Source: an uncultured candidatus Porisulfidus sp.
GTDB lineage: Bacteria; Pseudomonadota; Gammaproteobacteria; Poriferisulfidales; Poriferisulfidaceae
Direction: 5' to 3'
Assembly (NCBI GenBank): GCA_965204575.1
Contig: OZ241993.1
Coordinates: 224,001-288,000 of the forward strand
DNA: 64,000 nt
Shown here: positions 2,499 to 44,091 of the stretch, piece by piece
Layout: every line of letters begins with the position of its first letter
Numbering within the stretch: position 1 is the first letter of the stretch
The notes under the pieces: model-generated
The model's input: only the letters and a program-made list of their open reading frames with translations
What the model was told of the DNA's origin: nothing
The model's database searches: none
Translations under genes and position numbers: made by a program

Positions 2499-2530
2499 GA
2501 CGAGAGTGGCAAATATTCATCTATTTATAG

Positions 2531-2672
2531 GGGGCTCATATACAATAATCCGCAAGCAGACCTTGTATATCCATTGACAGATCATCGGGGTCGCTTGACC
2601 GAACCGTGCCCGAAGGCCCGGCCCGGACAGAGGCGAACGCCCCTCCCTGTCCAGCCGCGCCAGTCCCCAACG
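2531..2672 (-). ncRNA. Putative omega-RNA scaffold of E1 (overlaps tnpB 3' end)
   Basis: GGACAG/CTGTC complementarity, GGGGCG..CGC/GCGACCCC stem, C-UUCG-G hairpin, terminal stem pairing into the TIR; nearly identical in E2; boundaries inferred. Confidence 0.65.
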
Positions 2673-3846
2673 CCAATATATTGAACGCGGCATTGATGTC
2701 CGCATTCCCCGCGTATCCGCAGGATACGCATTCGAATCTCTCTCGCCGACGGTTCGCCTCCGCCACATGCCCGCATCGGTGACAACGCTGGCTCGTGTAC
2801 GCCGGGTCGACCGTCTCCACCCGGTGCGCCTTGTACTCCAGCATGAAGCGCAATCGGCCCCAGCCGCTTTCCGCAATGCTCCGGTTCAAGGTGGATTTCG
2901 CCTTGACGTGCTTGCCGGGTTTCTCCACCGTGCCTCTGGCTGACTTCATCATGTTCCTGATCTTCAGACCCTCCACGCAGACCGTCCCGAACCGGTCCGC
3001 CAAGTCATGGCTGACATGGTGCTTCCAGTTGTCCCGGATATAGGCGATCCTCCGGTGCAGTTTCGCCACGATTCTCCGCTCCTTCTCGCGGCGGTGCGAA
3101 TTCACCATGATGGCTTTGCCTTGTCGAGTCACCCTCGGCCCCCCGTCCGCATCCAGCAAAGGCACGCGCTTGCGCCTCTGCATCTTCCGTTGGTGCCGCT
3201 TCAGCCGGGTCTCAAGGCGGGACACGTCCGGCATGAAAATCCGCTCCGGCTCCGTGGTCGCCACGTTCCACTTCCCTAGGTCCAGCCCGACCGCCTCGCC
3301 GTTGTCCGCCAGTTCCGCATCCGGCACTTCCCAGAACACCGACACATACCACTTCCCGTTGGGATGCTTGGCCACCACCGCCTGCTTCGCCTTGCCGTAG
3401 GCCCACGGGTCGCCGCCCTGACGGTGGATCGGCACCCAGCCCACCTTGGTCACGTAGAGTTTGCCGTCCGCAATCCGCACGTTCTGCGGAATCGTGAACG
3501 AATCGCCGGCTTCCTTGTGCTTGAACTTCGGAAAGCCACGTTGGCCCTTCCGGGCCTCTCTCATCGCATCCGCATACCTTTTCAGCGCGTACCGCACTTC
3601 CGTATACGGCAACGCCTTCAGCCATTCGTGGCCTTCGCTGTTGCGCAGCCTCGTGAATGCCAGGCTTAGAGTGAAGAAAGTCGGCGAGGGTTTCTCTCCT
3701 TGCCCTTCTTTATAGGCTTTCATCGCATCCCGGTTCTGTCCGACCGCCCAGTTCCAGACGTAGCGGTTCGCCCCGGCGATGCCGGACAGCAGCTGTCCCC
3801 GGCGCAGGGTGCCGGGATACAGGCGATAGACGGATGAACGGATCAT
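2536..3846 (-). CDS. tnpB: TnpB RNA-guided endonuclease
   Basis: N-terminal YRLYP...ANRYVWNW, RuvC-I GLDLG, RuvC-II VEGL, YTSQ, Zn finger CHRCG/CVSCG, RuvC-III ADINAA; start set at MIRSS by comparison with the second copy. Confidence 0.95.
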   Translation of the reverse strand: MIRSSVYRLYPGTLRRGQLLSGIAGANRYVWNWAVGQNRDAMKAYKEGQGEKPSPTFFTLSLAFTRLRNSEGHEWLKALPYTEVRYALKRYADAMREARKGQRGFPKFKHKEAGDSFTIPQNVRIADGKLYVTKVGWVPIHRQGGDPWAYGKAKQAVVAKHPNGKWYVSVFWEVPDAELADNGEAVGLDLGKWNVATTEPERIFMPDVSRLETRLKRHQRKMQRRKRVPLLDADGGPRVTRQGKAIMVNSHRREKERRIVAKLHRRIAYIRDNWKHHVSHDLADRFGTVCVEGLKIRNMMKSARGTVEKPGKHVKAKSTLNRSIAESGWGRLRFMLEYKAHRVETVDPAYTSQRCHRCGHVAEANRRRERFECVSCGYAGNADINAAFNILALGTGAAGQGGAFASVRAGPSGTVRSSDPDDLSMDIQGLLADYCI

Positions 3847-3852
3847 GAAAGG

Positions 3853-3882
3853 ATTATGCCATGCCGGAAACCGATTCGACAA
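3853..3882 (-). promoter_or_regulatory. Probable sigma70 promoter for leaderless tnpB mRNA
   Basis: TTGTCG-18 bp-CATAAT with extended TGG, 6 nt before ATG; TGGCATAAT and its spacing conserved in E2. Confidence 0.5.
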
Positions 3883-3975
3883 AAACAAGATAAGGTATTG
3901 AATATATACGAATTATCGTGGGTTTTGCGGATTATCGTATACAATTCCCATTTATAGCCTATTGGGTGTTTGAAA

Positions 3976-4302
3976 TTACTTGGGAAATGCGATTCCAAAA
4001 TCCTCTCGAAACCTGTCGATCTGGTGCATGCGCTCATGCAAAATCGTAACAATGCCAATATCTCCATTTCTGAGCTTTTTCCAGTAGACGTAGTGTCTCT
4101 CGTATCGACAAAAATAACCATCCACTCCAAACTCTGCCGGAATCGGGCGGGACAGAATGCAATCCGCCTCAATCGCGGTGAACACCTCAAACAACCCTAT
4201 TATGTAAGCATCAGCCTGATTAATCCCCCACTTGTCGCGAGAGTATTGATAAATCTCATCAATACGGAGAGAAGCCGCTTCCTGAACGCGGACTGATGCC
4301 AT
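3976..4302 (-). CDS. ParE/RelE family toxin
   Basis: EAASLRIDEIYQYSRDKWGINQADAY...RYERHYVYW...IVTILHERM; downstream of an RHH antitoxin. Confidence 0.85.
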   Translation of the reverse strand: MASVRVQEAASLRIDEIYQYSRDKWGINQADAYIIGLFEVFTAIEADCILSRPIPAEFGVDGYFCRYERHYVYWKKLRNGDIGIVTILHERMHQIDRFREDFGIAFPK

Positions 4303-12185: not shown

Positions 12186-12195
12186 TCCCTAAAGT

Positions 12196-13543
12196 GGCGC
12201 ATCACGGTTTTGTGTGGAATAGAGGGTCAGGGATAATGCTTCCGCGTTTTAGTCTGGAGTGTGGTCTGATGGAAGCAGTGAACAAGTTTTGCGAGATGCT
12301 GATGTTTCTGCATCCGCCGTGGGAGGTGGTCTCGGTGTCCTGTCGGGAAGGAGGCGAGGATCGCAGCCCGGGGCGCGTCACGATCGAGTTGGCCTATCAG
12401 GCGAAGAGCCTGGTGCCGTGTCCGGAATGCGGGACCTTGTGCAAGCGGCACGACACGAAGGCGCGGGAGTGGCGGGACCTGGATTTGATGGGTTGGCGCA
12501 CGACCTTGCGGGCCGAGGTGCCGCGGGCGAACTGCCCGGAGCACGGGATTCGGCAGATCGCGGTGCCGTGGGCGGAGTCCCACGGTCGTTTCACGATGCG
12601 CTTCGAGACGGAGGTGATCGAGGACCTGCTGGCGATGCCGCTGCGGGCGGTGGCGCAGAAGTGGGGGCTGAGCTGGCATCAGGCGGACGGCATCCGCTCG
12701 CGGGCGGTGCGGCGCGGATTGGCGCGACGCGGGCCGCAGGCACCGAAGCGGATCGGCATCGACGAGACCTCGTTCCAGAAGCGGCATGAATATGTCTCGA
12801 TCGTGGTCGATCAGAAGCCGGCGTCCGGGCGCAAGGGGGTGGTGCTGTATGTGGGAGACCGCAAGGATCAGGCAGCGGTGGAGCCGTTTTTCAGAGAGTT
12901 GGGCGACGCCGCCTGCGCGCAGGTTGAGACGGCCGCGATGGATCTGGCGCCGGCCTACATCGCGGCGACCCTGAAGTACACCCAGGCCGACATCTGCATC
13001 GACCGCTTCCATGTGGTGAGCCTGCTCAACCAGGCGGTGGACCAGGTGCGCCGGGCGGAGCACAAGAGGTTGCTGGCGCAAGGCGATGCCCGCCTGGCGG
13101 GCACCCGTTTCGACTGGCTGATGACCGAGGAGCGGATGGGCCCGGCCCGGCGCCAGCGTCTGGAAGCGTTACGCAAGGAGGACCTGAAGGTGGCCCGGGC
13201 CTGGATCCTGAAGGAACGGGCGGCGGAGATCTGGGCGTTGCGCGACCGGACCCTGGCCTACTACGCCTGGGAAGCCTGGCATCAGGCGGCGAAACGCTCG
13301 CGGCTGGCCCCGGTGATCAAGGCGGCGGAGACGATCTGGAAGCATGTGGAAGAGATCCTGAACGCCGCCGTGCTGGGCATCAGCAATGCCCTGTCGGAAT
13401 CCATCAACGCGAAAGTGCAGTGGATCAAACGCCAAGCCTGCGGCTACCGCAGCCGCGAGCGCTTCCGTGAAGCCATCTACTTTCACTTGGGCGGACTCGA
13501 CCTGTATCCGAGACCTCCGTTCCACACAATTCCGTGAAGACCC
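12196..13543 (+). mobile_element. ISL3 family insertion sequence (1348 bp)
   Basis: Ends read inward GGCGCATCACGGTTTTGTGTGGAA / GGGTCTTCACGGAATTGTGTGGAA; perfect TSD CCTAAAGT at 12188-12195 and 13544-13551. Confidence 0.95.
12269..13537 (+). CDS. ISL3 family DDE transposase
   Basis: CPECG Zn finger, IGIDETS, AMDL, IDRFHVV, SNALSESINAK..KRQACGYR. Confidence 0.95.
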   Translation: MEAVNKFCEMLMFLHPPWEVVSVSCREGGEDRSPGRVTIELAYQAKSLVPCPECGTLCKRHDTKAREWRDLDLMGWRTTLRAEVPRANCPEHGIRQIAVPWAESHGRFTMRFETEVIEDLLAMPLRAVAQKWGLSWHQADGIRSRAVRRGLARRGPQAPKRIGIDETSFQKRHEYVSIVVDQKPASGRKGVVLYVGDRKDQAAVEPFFRELGDAACAQVETAAMDLAPAYIAATLKYTQADICIDRFHVVSLLNQAVDQVRRAEHKRLLAQGDARLAGTRFDWLMTEERMGPARRQRLEALRKEDLKVARAWILKERAAEIWALRDRTLAYYAWEAWHQAAKRSRLAPVIKAAETIWKHVEEILNAAVLGISNALSESINAKVQWIKRQACGYRSRERFREAIYFHLGGLDLYPRPPFHTIP

Positions 13544-13603
13544 CCTAAAGTTTGATGCGGCGAGCCTGCCTGAACTGCTGCTACTAGATTCTCCTACTCA
13601 CCC

Positions 13604-18260: not shown

Positions 18261-19553
18261 TCAATCGCCTTTCCCCGAAGCCAGCACGGCCGCGCCGATG
18301 TCGCGCCGGCAGAATTTGCCCTCGAACCGGATCCTCTCCGCCGCCCGGTAGGCCCGTTCCTTGGCAAGGGCCAGGGTCTCCTCTTTCGCACAAACGCACA
18401 GCACTCTCCCGCCATTCGTCACCACCTGCCCATTGTCTGCCGTCGTCCCGGCGTGGAAGACCTTCACCCCGGCCTCTCCTTCCGCCTCGTCGAGGCCGGT
18501 GATGGGAGCACCTTTCGGATAGCGTCCCGGATAGTCCCGGATTGCCAGTACGACGCCCAGCGTGGGGCGCGGATCCCATTCCGGAACACTTTCGTTCAAG
18601 CGCCCTTCGGTGGCGGCAAGGCAATGGTCCAGCAGGTCCGAATCCAACCGGAACAGGATCGGCTGGGTCTCGGGGTCACCGAACCGGCAGTTGTATTCGA
18701 GCACTTTCGGGTTGCCCCCCGAGTCCAGCATGAGCCCGGCGTATAGAAAGCCCCGGTACCGGGTTCCTTCCGAAGCCAACCCCCGAACCGTGGGGTGGAT
18801 AACCTCCTCAAGGACGCGGCGGTGCAGTTCCGGCGTGATCAGCGGCATCGGCGAGTAAGCGCCCATGCCGCCCGTGTTGGGGCCACGGTTGCCTTCGTCG
18901 CGCGCCTTGTGATCCTGCGACGTGGCCAGTGGAATGACATCCGTCCCGTCCACCAGGCAGATGAAACTGGCTTCCCGTCCTTCCAAGAACTCTTCGATCA
19001 CGATGGCGCGGCCGGCTTCCTGGAACTGTGCTTCCCGCAGCATCGCCGAGGCCGCCTGCTCCGCCTCGGCAATGGAAGTCGCCACAACGACACCCTTGCC
19101 GGCCGCCAGGCCATCGGCCTTGACCACGACCGGGGCCGCCTGCCCGGCCAAGTAACGCCGAGCCTGATCGAAATCGGTGAAGCGTTCGTAGCGTGCCGTG
19201 GGAATCCCGTGGCGCGCCATGAAATCCTTGCTGAAACCCTTGGAACTTTCCAGCCGGGCCGCCTCCTTGCAGGGCCCGAGCACCCGGCAGCCTTCCGCCT
19301 CGAACCGGTCGACCAGGCCGCCCGCCAGCGGATCTTCAGGCCCGACCACGGTCAGGTCGATGCCCTCCGACTTCGCGAAATCCAGCAAGGCGCCGGTATC
19401 CGTGGCGGCAATCGCCACGTTCCGGGTCCCCGGCTCCCGCGCCGTGCCCGCGTTGCCCGGAGCGACGAAAACCTGCTCGGCATCCTTCGACTGCGCGAGC
19501 TTCCAGGCCAGCGCATGCTCCCGGCCCCCTCCCCCGATCACCAGGACCTTCAT
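18261..19553 (-). CDS. purD: Phosphoribosylamine-glycine ligase
   Basis: MKVLVIGGGGREHAL, KADGLAAGKGV, GPNTGGMGAY, RFGDPETQ. Confidence 0.97.
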   Translation of the reverse strand: MKVLVIGGGGREHALAWKLAQSKDAEQVFVAPGNAGTAREPGTRNVAIAATDTGALLDFAKSEGIDLTVVGPEDPLAGGLVDRFEAEGCRVLGPCKEAARLESSKGFSKDFMARHGIPTARYERFTDFDQARRYLAGQAAPVVVKADGLAAGKGVVVATSIAEAEQAASAMLREAQFQEAGRAIVIEEFLEGREASFICLVDGTDVIPLATSQDHKARDEGNRGPNTGGMGAYSPMPLITPELHRRVLEEVIHPTVRGLASEGTRYRGFLYAGLMLDSGGNPKVLEYNCRFGDPETQPILFRLDSDLLDHCLAATEGRLNESVPEWDPRPTLGVVLAIRDYPGRYPKGAPITGLDEAEGEAGVKVFHAGTTADNGQVVTNGGRVLCVCAKEETLALAKERAYRAAERIRFEGKFCRRDIGAAVLASGKGD

Positions 19554-37480: not shown

Positions 37481-37545
37481 ACTGTGCGAATCAAACACTT
37501 CTCTTTGCAAAATGTCTTCGGGAGTTATGCAGACTTGATACAGCC

Positions 37546-38781
37546 ATGAAAGTCCATCGCACCGTCCGCTACCGCCTGCATCCCGGCTCACGCCGGAAAA
37601 ACCAGCAACTGCACGGCACCGCCGAAGCTTGTCGTTTCGTGTGGAACCACATGGTCGGCAAACTCAGGGACGAGTACGAGTTCGGAATCAAGCCGGATTT
37701 CCACTATTACTCGATGGGCAAGGTCTTCACCGTTCTGCGCCGTCACAGCTACAAGTGGTTGCAGGATTATTCGGCATATGTCGTCAAGAGTTCATTGCAA
37801 CCCATCGAGACGGCTTACAAGGAATTCTTCAAGGACGTGAAGACGGGTGGGAAACTCAACCGGAACCCCCCGCAATTCCACGGCAAGTGGACAACCAAGC
37901 CGAGTTTTCCAATCAACTATGTGTCGGCGAAGGTGACGGGAGAGAGCCTGTACGTGCAGAGAATCGGCTGGATGAAGCTGGTCGGCAACAACCCGGACCC
38001 GGACGGCGAATTCAAGTCCGGTCGCGTCTTGCAGGAATGCGGAAACTGGTACGCCTATCTCACTTACGAAGTGCAAGCCGAAGCCAGTCTCCCTCACGCC
38101 ATCAAGGAAGTGGGCATCGACCGCAATGTGAATGAAGACGGGTGGGCGGTATTATCGGACGGCACGAAGCATCCGGGGCCGGATTTGGAGAAGAAAACGG
38201 CACGGCGAAAACGCTACCAGCGCAAGATGGCGCGACAGGTGAAAGGGAGCAACCGCAGAAAGGTCACCAAGGTGAAGTTGCAGAAAGCATTCCGTGCGGA
38301 ATGCTTCGCCCGGTTGAACTGGGCGCACCACGTCAGCAAGAGCATTGCGTCAGAATACGATGTGGCATACATGGAGAAACTGAACATCGGGGACATGACG
38401 AAATCCGCCAAGGGAACGGTGGAGGAACCGGGTACGAACGTAAAAGCGAAGTCCGGGCTGAACCGGAAGATCCTGGCCAGCGCATGGGGCACGCTGGAGT
38501 TGTGCCTGGACTACAAGATGGAAGTGCGCCCTGTACCTCCGGCGTATACCAGCCAGACGTGCCATTCATGCGGGCACGTCGATGAGAAAAACAGAAATGG
38601 AACAGATTTCAAGTGCACCGCTTGCGGGCACGCGGACGATGCGGACGTGAACGCCGCATTGAACATTTTGGCCTTCGGGAATGGGGCGACTGGACGTGGA
38701 GACGGCGGGGTTGCCCGGTCTGAGAAGCGTCAAGAAATGGGACAATCTGGCAGGCGAGAGTCTGCCAAGTTATCTACATAA
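37546..38781 (+). CDS. tnpB: TnpB RNA-guided endonuclease, second lineage
   Basis: YRLHP...CRFVWN, RuvC-I GIDRN, RuvC-II MEKL, YTSQ, CHSCG/CTACG, RuvC-III ADVNAA. Confidence 0.95.
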
Positions 38782-38786
38782 ATCCC
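38683..38786 (+). ncRNA. Putative omega-RNA scaffold of E3
   Basis: GACGT(38693)/GCGTC(38727) pairing, AGAC..GTCT stem, TGGCAGGC-GAGA-GTCTGCCA hairpin extending into the TIR; boundaries inferred. Confidence 0.6.
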
Positions 38787-39257
38787 ATGTCTTCTTTATT
38801 TTCTCCTCGGGAGAGTATCAAGCAAGTCGAAGAAGGGGATCAATTGGCCCCGAAATTCGATGAAAACGGGCTGATCCCCGTGGTGACCACCGACTACGAA
38901 TCCGGCGAAGTGCTGATGGTCGCGTACCAGAACGCCGAGGCGCTGGAGCGGACCATCCGGAGCGGCGAAGCCTGGTACTACAGCCGCAGCCGCCAATGCC
39001 TGTGGCACAAGGGCGCCACCAGCGGACTGGTGCAGAAAGTGCGCGAACTGCGCATCGACGACGACCAGGACACGGTCTGGATGCGCGTGACGGTCGCAGG
39101 CTCCGGCGCCAGTTGCCACGTCGGCTACCGCTCCTGCTTCTACCGCAAGGTGCCGACCGGGGATTCGGCCGGCCAAGCGCTGGAACACCTGGAACGCGAC
39201 AAAACCTTCGACCCCGATGAGGTCTACGGCGACGCTGAAAATCCGACCCGCCTGTAA
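38787..39257 (+). CDS. hisI: Phosphoribosyl-AMP cyclohydrolase
   Basis: [38 protein letters not shown]. Confidence 0.95.
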
Positions 39258-42200: not shown

Positions 42201-42607
42201 GCCGGCTATTGACCCCTCCGGAGGACGGCTGGCACGATACCGGCGACGTTGCCGAATTCGACGATGACGGATTCCTGAGCCTGCATGGCCGAGCCAAGCG
42301 GTTCGCCAAGATCGGAGGCGAGATGGTGTCGCTCGCCTACGTAGAGCAGCAGGTCAGCGAAGTCTGGCCGGAATACCGTCACATCGTCTGCGCCGTCAAC
42401 CACCCCACCCGAGGAGAGCAATTGGTCCTCATTACTGAGCATCCCGAGCCGGACCGGGGTCGGTTGAGACAGGCCCTGGGGGAACGGGGAGTGGGAGAGC
42501 TGGCGCGGCCCCGGCTGGTTTTGCCGGTCGAGGTTCTGCCGCTGCTTGGCAGCGGCAAACCGGACTTGCGGAAAGCACAGGAACTGGCGCTCTCGGTGCT
42601 ACACTAG
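39272..42607 (+). CDS. aas: MFS (LplT-like) + degenerate acyltransferase + acyl-ACP synthetase fusion
   Basis: GAYNDNVFRNA, LFGPVKY, FTSGSEGEPKG, EGYGVTE, KRFAKIGGEMVSL. Confidence 0.88.
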   Translation: MPSTFRLLLTRRLGPFFFTQLTGAYNDNVFRNALVVLITYRITELAGFGSEELVAASAGIFLLPFLLFSALGGKLADHFPRHRLIQHIKLAECALMALTWIGFATGSVTFLFVILFLTGLQSALFGPVKYAILPNLLSRAELLAGNAWIAVGTFISILAGSLTGTLVMGVPDAALWVPGILVISAGAGYLASHRIPAQVPAGAGLRLSFEPFSETARIVREGLSQPRLAWLMLAISWFWMIGVGMLVQLPLFVRDVLAGNEQALAGALAIFTVGVGLGALLCNRWLGGTARATLAPISAAALGAGFVLLSLVPPADVPLRGFADLLEDPQAVTALGILLALAVAGGFYVTPLYTLVQQRAPEDRRARVIACNNILNSIFMALASATSIVIFQSGGTIVTVWLAMAATALLAALLLLHFTQGSFRHVLLWPVASVVLITETPPPGSLVFARRGSAWVAWALAATIPGKLEIHVAPALLRRASLRLLACWVRLKPLDPAALDDQWPGNQDEPARTVLILPPSGPEGEASLLELMQTARERSGRPVEVASVSDPELYMPRFYPRIRVGFENCPLPPRAADEPEALRRDALKIYDLLCELEYRMHCQECTALQSLYGAARRFGAGYPILADLERTLTYRQLLQATHAVAQLLERALPKAQDTVGILLPNATATPITFFAMHALHRIPVMLNYTAGPANVASACRTAGLTHVVTSRRFVEKADLGGLTDALAGDYALLWLEDLRPQLSLGMKLKAAWRAMRPPPKGDPSDPAVVLFTSGSEGEPKGVVLSHRNLQRNRCQVRAVLNLTPQDHLLLCLPTFHSFALGVGLLLPLMAGLRCTLYPSPLHYKQIPELIRKHDITVFFSTDTFLNGYGQAASPEDLQSLRLIVAGAEPLKPGTRKFWQDRFGLTVHEGYGVTETSPAVSANTFACNRPGSVGRLMPDIEARLEPLDDSQDTIDTTRGRLFLRGPNVMSGYWMPGESRLLTPPEDGWHDTGDVAEFDDDGFLSLHGRAKRFAKIGGEMVSLAYVEQQVSEVWPEYRHIVCAVNHPTRGEQLVLITEHPEPDRGRLRQALGERGVGELARPRLVLPVEVLPLLGSGKPDLRKAQELALSVLH

Positions 42608-42611
42608 CTTT

Positions 42612-44030
42612 GGGGCTCATATACAATAATCCGCAAGCAGACCTTGTATATCCATTGACAGATCATCGGGGTCGCTTGACCGAACCGCGCCCGAAGGCCC
42701 GGCTCGGACAGCGGCGAACGCCCCTCCCTGTCCAGCCGCGCCAGTCCCCAACGCCAGTATGTTGAACGCGGCATTGATGTCCGCGTTCCCCGCGTATCCG
42801 CAGGATACGCATTCGAATCTCTCTCGCCGACGGTTCGCCTCCGCTACATGCCCGCATCGGTGGCAACGCTGGCTCGTGTACGCCGGGTCGACCGTCTCCA
42901 TCCGGTACGCCTTGTAGCCTAGCATGAAGCGCAACCGGCCCCAGCCGCTTTCCGCAATGCCTCGGTTCAGGGCGGATTTCGCGTTGATATGCTTGCCCGG
43001 CTTCTCCACCGTGCCCTTGGCCGACTTCATCATGTTCCTGATCTTCAGACCCTCCACGCAGACCGTCCCGAACCGGTTCGCCAAGTCGTGGCTGACATGG
43101 TGCCGCCAGTTGTCCCGGATGTAGGCGATCCTCCGGTACAGTTTCGCCACGATCTTTCGTTCCTTCTCGCGACGGTGCGAATTCACCTGGATGGTTTTAC
43201 CTTGTCTGGTTAGCCTAGGCTCTCCATCCGCGTCCAAAAGGGGCACCCGTTGGCGGCGGTCCATCTTTCGCTTATGCCGTTTCAGTTTTGTTTCAAGATC
43301 GGAGACGTCCGGCATGAAAATTCGGTCGGGCTCCGTGGTGGCCACGTTCCACTTCCCCATGTCCAGCCCGACCGCCTCGCCGTTGTCCTCCGGTTTCGTA
43401 TCCGGTACTTCCCAGAACACCGACACATACCACTTCCCGTTCGGAGGCTTGACCACCACGGCCTGTTTTGCCTCGCCGTAAGCCCATGGATCACCACCCT
43501 GACGGTGGATCGGCACCCAACCCACCTTGGTCACGTAGAGTTTGCCGTCCGCGATCCGCACGTTCTGCGGAATCGTGAACGAGTCGCCGTCTTCCTTGTG
43601 CTTGAACCTCGGAAAGCTACACTTGCCCTTCCTGGCTTCCTTCATGGCATCCGCATACCGTTTCAGCACATACCGCACTTCCGCATACGGCAACTCCCTC
43701 AGCCATTCGTGGCCTTCGCCGTTGCGCAGCCTCGTGAATGCCAGGCCCAGGGTGAAGAAAGTCGGCGAAGGCTTTTCGCCTTTCCCTTCTTTATAGGCTT
43801 TCATCGCATCCCGGTTCCGTCCAATGGCCCAGTTCCAGACGTAGCGGTTCGCCCCGGCGATGCCGGACAATAACTGAGCCCGGCGCAAGGTGCCGGGATA
43901 CAGGCGATAGACGGACGAACGGATCATGCAGGGATTATGCCATGCCGGAAACCGACCTGCTAAAGATGGGATAAGATATTGAATATATACGGATTATCAT
44001 GAGTCTTTCGGATTATCGTATACAATTCCA
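42612..44030 (-). mobile_element. Non-autonomous TIR element carrying only tnpB (element E2, 1419 bp, diverged copy of E1)
   Basis: Same ends and length as E1; flanks CTAGCTTT (42604-42611) and CTAGTTTT (44031-44038), 7/8 identical. Confidence 0.88.
42617..43927 (-). CDS. tnpB: TnpB RNA-guided endonuclease (paralog of 2536-3846)
   Basis: GLDMG, VEGL, CHRCG/CVSCG, ADINAA; colinear with the E1 protein. Confidence 0.95.
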   Translation of the reverse strand: MIRSSVYRLYPGTLRRAQLLSGIAGANRYVWNWAIGRNRDAMKAYKEGKGEKPSPTFFTLGLAFTRLRNGEGHEWLRELPYAEVRYVLKRYADAMKEARKGKCSFPRFKHKEDGDSFTIPQNVRIADGKLYVTKVGWVPIHRQGGDPWAYGEAKQAVVVKPPNGKWYVSVFWEVPDTKPEDNGEAVGLDMGKWNVATTEPDRIFMPDVSDLETKLKRHKRKMDRRQRVPLLDADGEPRLTRQGKTIQVNSHRREKERKIVAKLYRRIAYIRDNWRHHVSHDLANRFGTVCVEGLKIRNMMKSAKGTVEKPGKHINAKSALNRGIAESGWGRLRFMLGYKAYRMETVDPAYTSQRCHRCGHVAEANRRRERFECVSCGYAGNADINAAFNILALGTGAAGQGGAFAAVRAGPSGAVRSSDPDDLSMDIQGLLADYCI

Positions 44031-44091
44031 CTAGTTTTCGAGATATAACGGTGAATACCCGCTCCTTTGGAACACCAATTGGGAGGTGCGG

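Follow-up and report, generated by a model that had tools for sequence, protein, structure and literature searches.

A window of 64,000 nucleotides from the genome of an uncultured Candidatus Porisulfidus sp. (GenBank assembly GCA_965204575.1, contig OZ241993.1, bases 224001–288000) contains two mobile elements, E1 and E2, in which a gene for a TnpB-type RNA-guided nuclease lies between terminal inverted repeats (TIRs) that are in turn flanked by 8-bp target-site duplications (TSDs). Most probably, both are non-autonomous elements of the insertion sequence (IS) type IS1595 that carry tnpB as cargo. The genome consists of one contig of 1,816,663 bases and is 98.75% complete.

Ends, target sites and cargo of E1 and E2

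The two elements, E1 at 2531–3949 and E2 at 42612–44030 of the window (Table 1), are both 1419 bp long and show 89% identity over 1418 of the 1419 bases, with a similarity that starts and stops at these coordinates. In a repeat search, the TIR was the longest inverted repeat in the region of either element. The arms found for E1 (2526–2555 and 3925–3954) measure 30 nt, are 77% complementary and overlap the TSD, itself partly palindromic, by 5 nt, and by eye 18 of 23 positions match; those of E2 (42620–42637 and 44005–44022) measure 18 nt and are 89% complementary. Identical 8-mers, ATTTATAG, flank E1, and the flanks of E2, CTAGCTTT and CTAGTTTT, agree at seven of eight positions. Each element has one long open reading frame (ORF) with a family match, which is tnpB on the minus strand, encoding 436 amino acids and with its stop codon 5 nt from the terminus. 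The initial annotation of this DNA, made from the sequence alone, had described two 1419-bp copies with common boundaries and imperfect TIRs, different 8-bp direct repeats at each copy, and tnpB with an intact RuvC triad and zinc finger as the only cargo, and on all these points alignment, repeat search and Pfam domains bear it out. A third copy of this family (family A), E3 at genome 362141–363565, is 77% identical, possesses TIRs and has flanks that match at 6/8 positions, the mutual divergence of E1, E2 and E3 being 11–23%. At the insertion point of E2 (42596–42611), the upstream gene has its stop codon; the TAG is part of the duplicated 8-mer, so that the gene retained it. The TIR core also finds a match at genome 293464, which is located within a histidine-kinase-like coding region and was taken as a chance occurrence.

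The flanking repeats of E1 and E2 are true target duplications, because the empty alleles of both elements keep one 8-mer and no TIR. For E2, the empty allele is present in two genomes (G003 and G008), which read CTACA, a single CTAGTTTT and C, with contiguous flanks. For E1, it is found on a 4831-bp contig from a DNA run labelled as sponge metagenome (X4), which joins position 2522 to 3950 and skips 1427 nt, i.e. the element and one 8-mer, with eight letters ambiguous at the joint; the flanks of this contig differ from the window at 7/192 and 1/201 positions. Contigs of other copies from the same runs part from the window precisely at 2531 and 3950. Two further genomes (G002 and G007) lack the element at the E1 site, and their intergenic DNA is too diverged to reveal the 8-mer. 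Empty alleles with one 8-mer, which had been suggested as a check, were thus obtained for both elements. The expectation that other copies also possess TSDs held in part: among the ten full-length family-A copies in the genus, E1–E3 included, whose termini were compared by local alignment, a duplication is recognisable in eight, with a match of 8/8 in three, 7/8 in two, 6/8 in two and 5/8 in one. Three additional family-A copies are fragments or have no recognisable 5' end and were not included in this count.

The protein encoded by E1 has the RuvC D-E-D residues, the four-cysteine zinc finger and the OrfB_IS605 and TNB domains of a TnpB (OMEGA) nuclease, the Pfam matches being HTH_OrfB_IS605, OrfB_IS605 and Cas12f1-like_TNB. 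Its best natural relative of solved structure is ISDra2 TnpB (E ~1e-21, residues 4–400 aligned). Residues D189, E292 and D383 as well as the four zinc-finger cysteines are invariant in 13/13 aligned relatives. An open frame of 436–437 codons is kept in all ten full-length family-A copies, and the ratio of nonsynonymous to synonymous substitution (dN/dS) is 0.11–0.20 in 36/36 pairs formed by nine of them, which indicates that family-A tnpB evolves under purifying selection. At G012:C26:100888-102063, a family-A tnpB match lies inside an open frame of 886 amino acids, which may represent a fusion or a read-through.

The tnpB 3' end of the elements is conserved as a possible RNA as well. The last 250 nt of 13 family-A copies can be folded into a conserved multi-stem consensus structure that reaches the element end, and its terminal hairpin falls within the TIR; the flank beyond the element end is not conserved. 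From the side of position 2531, E1 and E2 are identical over the first 77 nt, against 11% divergence overall. An omega RNA would accordingly run through the 3' TIR, and its guide would be taken from the flanking DNA. In contigs of an RNA-library run (X20), which represent related copies only, eight pieces that are 85–99% alike cover 2531–3847 and none covers 3856–4150, although such contigs are no measure of transcription.

Origin of the ends and the candidate transposases

By tblastn, 16 tnpB loci were detected in the genome, three of family A, six of family B and seven of family C. TIRs, about 25 bp long, delimit the elements of families B and C as well, and most copies have recognisable 8-bp duplications: in family B three are perfect, two match at 7/8 and one copy has none, and in family C one is perfect, three match at 7/8, two are weaker and one copy, at 37544–38787 of the window, has a degenerate 5' end. 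The TIRs are of two types. Those of family B match an ISL3-family element discussed below; those of families A and C start with GGGAATTAT or GGGGCT. Searched with a degenerate pattern, this second type gives matches in 11/16 genomes of the genus, and the reversed control pattern gives none. In three same-genus genomes (G002, G005 and G012) there are TIR pairs 2.5–3.1 kb apart (elements L078–L080). In each of these elements the TIRs match without fault over at least 26 bp, the 8-bp TSD is perfect, and the TIRs enclose a protein of 307–319 amino acids with the domains Zn_ribbon_IS1595 and DDE_Tnp_IS1595 (Pfam E 8e-44). In two of the three, a gene for an N6/N4 DNA methylase is also enclosed. Counted by ourselves, the family-C tnpB elements have 25/26 TIR positions in common with these transposase-bearing elements, and the two TIRs of E1 have 19 and 20 of 26. 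With 8-bp TSDs and TIRs homologous to those of IS1595-transposase elements, E1 and E2 show the features of IS1595 derivatives, and the guess of the initial annotation that their ends belong to the IS1595 family has proved right.

The IS1595 domain is present in 22/41 related genomes. In the genome studied here, tblastn revealed a broken IS1595-family transposase gene (genome 1081612–1082530), which is frameshifted, internally deleted and located beside a methylase gene, and a single short remnant elsewhere. We infer that E1 and E2 are mobilised in trans by a DDE transposase. They would have originated from an IS1595-family IS in which tnpB and the 3' omega RNA region replaced the transposase gene between the TIRs, and a transposase that is intact in sister genomes and broken here would insert the elements and create the 8-bp TSDs. 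The earlier proposal of a DDE transposase encoded outside the window is supported for E1 and E2, with only a broken copy of the IS1595 partner in this genome; the window itself does encode an intact DDE transposase, which belongs to the ISL3 family.

This ISL3 element, which came to light when the genome was compared with itself, is 1348 bp long and occurs in three copies of 100% identity (window 12196–13543, genome 36846–38195 and genome 396973–398323), each with a perfect 8-bp TSD. The element has probably been active recently, because these three copies are identical and have perfect TSDs. Its protein (12236–13534) contains Zn_ribbon_ISL3, HTH_Tnp_ISL3 and DDE_Tnp_ISL3 (E 8e-64). The TIRs of the element correspond to those of the family-B tnpB elements, six in number and all located outside the window, which this transposase plausibly moves. 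As the only intact DDE transposase of the genome that makes 8-bp TSDs, and in view of its apparent recent activity, it has to be considered as the enzyme that mobilises E1 and E2 too. However, E1 and E2 lack its TIR, their own ends having little in common with ISL3-type TIRs past the leading G run, and the ISL3 elements of six other genomes all have the ISL3-type TIR. Furthermore, E1, E2 and E3 have diverged by 11–23%, unlike the identical ISL3 copies, and we therefore regard mobilisation by this transposase as quite improbable.

Two other explanations were considered. An inner tnpB unit might alone be mobile and might have landed in an older short element that owns the TIRs and TSDs. Elements that are short or have other cargo do exist with the same TIR type, for example a 567-bp element without tnpB at genome 16577–17143, which has IS1595-type TIRs and an 8-bp TSD, but the TIR is all that it has in common with the tnpB elements. 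Since both the similarity between copies and the divergence points of the contigs lie at the outer TIR bases (2531 and 3949/3950), since the ORF of tnpB, like the fold conserved at its 3' end, reaches within 5 nt of the terminus, and since the empty alleles lack TIRs, this possibility is very improbable. Even less probable is the view that takes E1 and E2 for common IS200/IS605- or IS607-type elements with tnpB alone (IS1341-like), which a Y1 or serine TnpA would move and whose flanks would be a repeated target motif. The TnpB shares its Pfam families with the OrfB of IS605, and hairpins are found close to both ends. Nevertheless, the flanking 8-mers vary between copies, exactly one 8-mer is found in the empty sites, and the two ends are inverted copies of each other, the non-palindromic loop sequence included. 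Moreover, no Y1 transposase (PF01797) and no serine recombinase (Resolvase, PF00239) was found in this genome, with matches in 6/14 and 12/14 control genomes, respectively. We consider this last view extremely improbable.

Several results count against the interpretation of E1 and E2 as IS1595-type elements that carry tnpB and an omega RNA region. No TSD is recognisable at two of the ten full-length family-A copies. The TIRs of E1 agree with those of the IS1595-transposase elements at only 19–20 of 26 positions, and their actual partner may have been a different variant of IS1595. The IS1595 domain was not detected in this genome at E 1e-15 and there is no intact transposase, so that E1 and E2 may be immobile at present; a partner transposase that does not function here fits the 11–23% divergence among the three family-A copies. 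With respect to the RNA, a search of the whole window with Rfam at the gathering threshold gave no match of any kind, hence none to a known omega RNA family, and RNA ends are not visible in X20, which is the sole RNA library and provided contigs of related copies only.

The features of the window are collected in Table 1. Elsewhere in the genome, a further lone TIR is present at 18745–18770, 1.6 kb from the 567-bp element. The latter was considered as an omega-RNA-only derivative, which was rejected as it shares only the TIR with tnpB elements. At genome 395874–396600, an IS1595-type TIR is followed by two small ORFs that by eye resemble a HicA/HicB pair, and the third ISL3 copy adjoins or sits within this element. 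Remnants of ISL3 and IS1595 transposases occur together at genome 1097994–1098631. Further repeats are located at genome 24145–25603, 713401–714859, 1241919–1243333, 1813850–1815264, 1066530–1068414 and 1674005–1675889; among these, two pairs have ORFs that look IS110-like by eye, and one pair of 1885 bp has an ORF of 550 amino acids and inverted ends of the CCCCGAT type.

Table 1 Features of E1, E2 and related elements in the window (positions are those of the window)
Feature	Position	Strand	Basis or remark
E1 target-site duplication, left, ATTTATAG	2523..2530		single copy kept in the X4 empty allele
E1 TIR, 3' side of tnpB, including 8-bp hairpin stem (2538-2545 with 2563-2570)	2531..2556	-	repeat search
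Candidate omega RNA scaffold (tnpB 3' end and TIR)	2531..2760	-	conserved fold; putative extent
E1 tnpB, 436 codons and stop	2536..3846	-	ORF, Pfam, dN/dS
E1 TIR, 5' side of tnpB	3924..3949	-	20/26 positions as in TIR of IS1595-transposase element (own count)
E1 target-site duplication, right, ATTTATAG	3950..3957		repeat search and empty allele
GG 5' of upstream TSD (tnpB orientation), candidate TAM position	3958..3959	-	read from sequence
ISL3-family IS, intact; TSDs 12188-12195 and 13544-13551	12196..13543	+	one of three identical copies
Family-C tnpB element, IS1595-type TIR at 3' end, degenerate 5' end	~37544..38787	+	coordinates approximate
E2 TSD, left, CTAGCTTT	42604..42611		sequence
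E2 element; tnpB 42617-43927 (-); outermost base of 5' TIR changed	42612..44030	-	alignment and ORF
E2 TSD, right, CTAGTTTT	44031..44038		single copy in G003/G008 empty sites

Distribution of related elements and a base beside the upstream duplication

A scan of one genome per species yielded at least 510 confirmed relatives of the E1 TnpB, the best 80 of which were analysed. These 80 are 35–45% identical to it, except for one fragment of 83% identity, and their records are bacterial metagenome-assembled genomes (MAGs) from Gamma- and Alphaproteobacteria, Rhodothermales, Bacteroidota, Thermodesulfobacteriota, Candidatus Dadabacteria, Caldilineaceae and others. With a crude automatic test, a TIR pair and a TSD of at least 7/8 were found at 29/80 loci (24 perfect, five at 7/8); the test misses elements with differing outermost TIR bases, E1 included, and its counts of 29/80 and 15/38 are lower bounds. 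A GGG start is seen in 26 of the 29 elements and a CCC end in 25; two of the 29 have an ISL3-type TIR. Many of the 51 loci without an automatic call have visible TIRs, the boundaries of which escaped the test, and some have none. An IS1595 transposase is present within 2.5 kb of only one of the 80 loci, where the tnpB element interrupts the transposase gene. In a Rhodothermales MAG (L178:1492-3591), an IS1595-family transposase gene contains an inserted tnpB element that has an 8-bp TSD. One of the 29 elements (L158, Caldilineaceae), with a perfect 8-bp TSD, has a TIR that fits neither of the two types described here, IS1595 and ISL3, and may represent a third vehicle.

In a quick tree, which has support values from the Shimodaira–Hasegawa-like approximate likelihood ratio test (SH-aLRT), a midpoint root and no IS605 outgroup, those tnpB genes whose TIRs are of the ISL3 type group in a single clade (support 100). 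This clade adjoins family A, a join that has a support of 85 and carries a long-branch warning, amid clades of the IS1595 type. Because of this position in the midpoint-rooted tree, we read it as a sister tnpB clade that apparently changed vehicle, at least once, into ISL3-type TIRs.

The insertion sites of the tnpB elements also share a feature on one side. Position -1, the base that immediately precedes the upstream TSD when a site is read in the direction of tnpB, was G at 24 and A at five of 29 sites in a first set, and never C or T; the G excess has a binomial p of 3e-9 against a G background of 0.29. At the mirrored position past the downstream TSD, C was found in only 6/29. A second set of 15 sites, four insertions of which are common to the first, had G at ten and A at five, and the pooled distinct sites that were scored automatically gave 31 G and 9 A in 40, without C or T. 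By eye, E1 (GG), E2 (CG), E3 and seven more sites agree with this pattern. Nine distinct autonomous IS1595 insertions, among them further copies whose TIRs start in the same way, served as control, with G2 A9 C5 T2 over their 18 ends, and the difference between the tnpB-element sites and this control has a Fisher p of 5e-6 (with G entered as 30/39 where the pooled count is 31/40). For tnpB elements in ISL3-type TIRs, the base is G in 5/5 automatic cases and G and A in two scored by eye, and the three autonomous ISL3 copies have C, C and T by eye.

Since a purine at -1 of tnpB elements fails to hold for copies that bear a transposase, a G or A that borders the upstream TSD could be part of a candidate target-adjacent motif (TAM) that spans the junction of flank and TSD; we propose this, as well as the role in homing that would follow from it, with reservation. 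Unoccupied alleles would be cut by TnpB where a purine, in most cases G, immediately precedes the 8-mer; at the occupied allele, the run of C at the end of the TIR would give protection. Cleavage of this kind would help the element to be copied into alleles that lack it, or would lead to the loss of such alleles. Alternatively, the one-sided G may reflect an asymmetric target choice by the transposase or a compositional accident. The control is limited to nine IS1595 insertions and three ISL3 copies, with two boundaries in the former shifted by one base by eye, and this weakens the case for a TAM. In transposase orientation, the IS1595 controls have a purine in 7/9, and the TSDs are A/T-rich, which makes the local composition unusual. 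We nevertheless consider this alternative unlikely, as G is present at -1 in 24/29 tnpB-element sites versus 1/9 in the IS1595 control, C or T never occurs at the 40 pooled sites, and the same G accompanies tnpB in ISL3-type TIRs, where autonomous ISL3 copies have pyrimidines. Two transposase families would need an identical asymmetry, and solely with tnpB cargo.

It is possible, and we put it forward tentatively, that a large tnpB clade, free of Y1 and serine TnpA, spreads across phyla between the ends of active DDE insertion sequences (IS1595, then ISL3 and perhaps others), and that its nuclease, in the function familiar from IS605, would cut empty alleles marked by G or A beside the 8-bp target so that insertions at such a base persist and spread. 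If this is true, the transposase ends would be exchangeable wheels and tnpB the part under selection.

Comparison with known systems

In current accounts, the role of TnpB is to restore the transposon after scarless excision by a Y1 transposase or serine recombinase. Elements with tnpB alone are stated to have neither TIRs nor TSDs (Bao and Jurka 2013, PMC3627910; also PMC13565253). The IS1341-type elements of the IS200/IS605 group resemble E1 and E2 in protein family, in having a single tnpB on about 1.3–1.5 kb, and in the presence of many copies per genome. They differ in lacking TIRs and TSDs and in using a fixed short target motif, whereas E1 and E2 have both TIRs and TSDs and reside in a genome without Y1 TnpA. 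IS607 is defined by a serine recombinase TnpA, for which the genome has no match (PF00239, 0).

The IS1595 groups marked '+' in ISfinder carry passenger genes, and share with E1 and E2 the 8-bp TSD and G-run ends, next to a transposase with an N-terminal zinc ribbon. E1 and E2 differ from them in having no transposase gene and only tnpB, and the passenger of the IS1595 elements in the same genus is the N6/N4 DNA methylase.

The general architecture of a DDE-associated bacterial TnpB with inverted ends was already published in 2023. The main text of that study describes six DDE-associated TnpB branches (DDE-1 to DDE-6) with inverted terminal repeats, and solo TnpBs with the same ends that are presumably moved in trans, with IS630 as the only named family (Altae-Tran et al. 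2023, PNAS, PMC10691335). According to this main text, the branches are like the present elements in that a bacterial tnpB lies between inverted repeats with its 3' end near the transposon end, and in that solo tnpB elements end like transposase-bearing ones, from which mobilisation in trans was likewise deduced. The elements described here differ by their IS1595- and ISL3-type vehicles, and no transposase together with tnpB in cis was seen. ISL3 and IS1595 are not mentioned in the main text of PMC10691335, the branch lists of which stand in its supplements, so that overlap is possible. In the open-access text that was searched, we found no IS1595- or ISL3-type vehicles for tnpB, on which the 2023 supplements may bear, and no tnpB-only expansion across phyla, vehicle change or one-sided base signature.

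A recent review lists ISL2, IS630 and IS1031; in its argument, TnpB should be of little benefit to DDE transposons (2026 review, PMC13565253). The present lineage runs counter to this, with tnpB as sole gene, purifying selection, at least one putative change of vehicle and the one-sided signature, which relatives with a transposase lack. It provides a concrete case in bacteria in which to ask what a cut-or-copy DDE transposon gains from an RNA-guided nuclease: the ends are defined, and there are candidates for the transposases and for the TAM. Its proteins are compact nucleases (about 400–440 amino acids), for which the candidate TAM is possibly short.

The resemblance to eukaryotic Fanzors that was suggested initially holds for the architecture, a TIR/TSD element with tnpB as sole gene, and not for the implied novelty, since the main text of PMC10691335 shows that such an arrangement has precedent in bacteria. 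Fanzor1 and Fanzor2* of eukaryotic TIR/TSD transposons are alike in that the non-autonomous elements carry nothing but a TnpB-type nuclease (PMC3627910; Yoon et al. 2023, PMC10711439), in that the guide RNA region runs through the TIR, as would be the case here, and in having the TAM at the junction of flank and TSD, where our candidate is located (PMC10711439, PMC13565253). Fanzors occur in eukaryotic or giant-virus hosts and have a derived active site and N-terminal extensions; E1 and E2, in contrast, have a bacterial host, a TnpB of ordinary size with a canonical D-E-D triad and an 8-bp TSD of variable sequence. The elements form a prokaryotic counterpart of the Fanzor arrangement.

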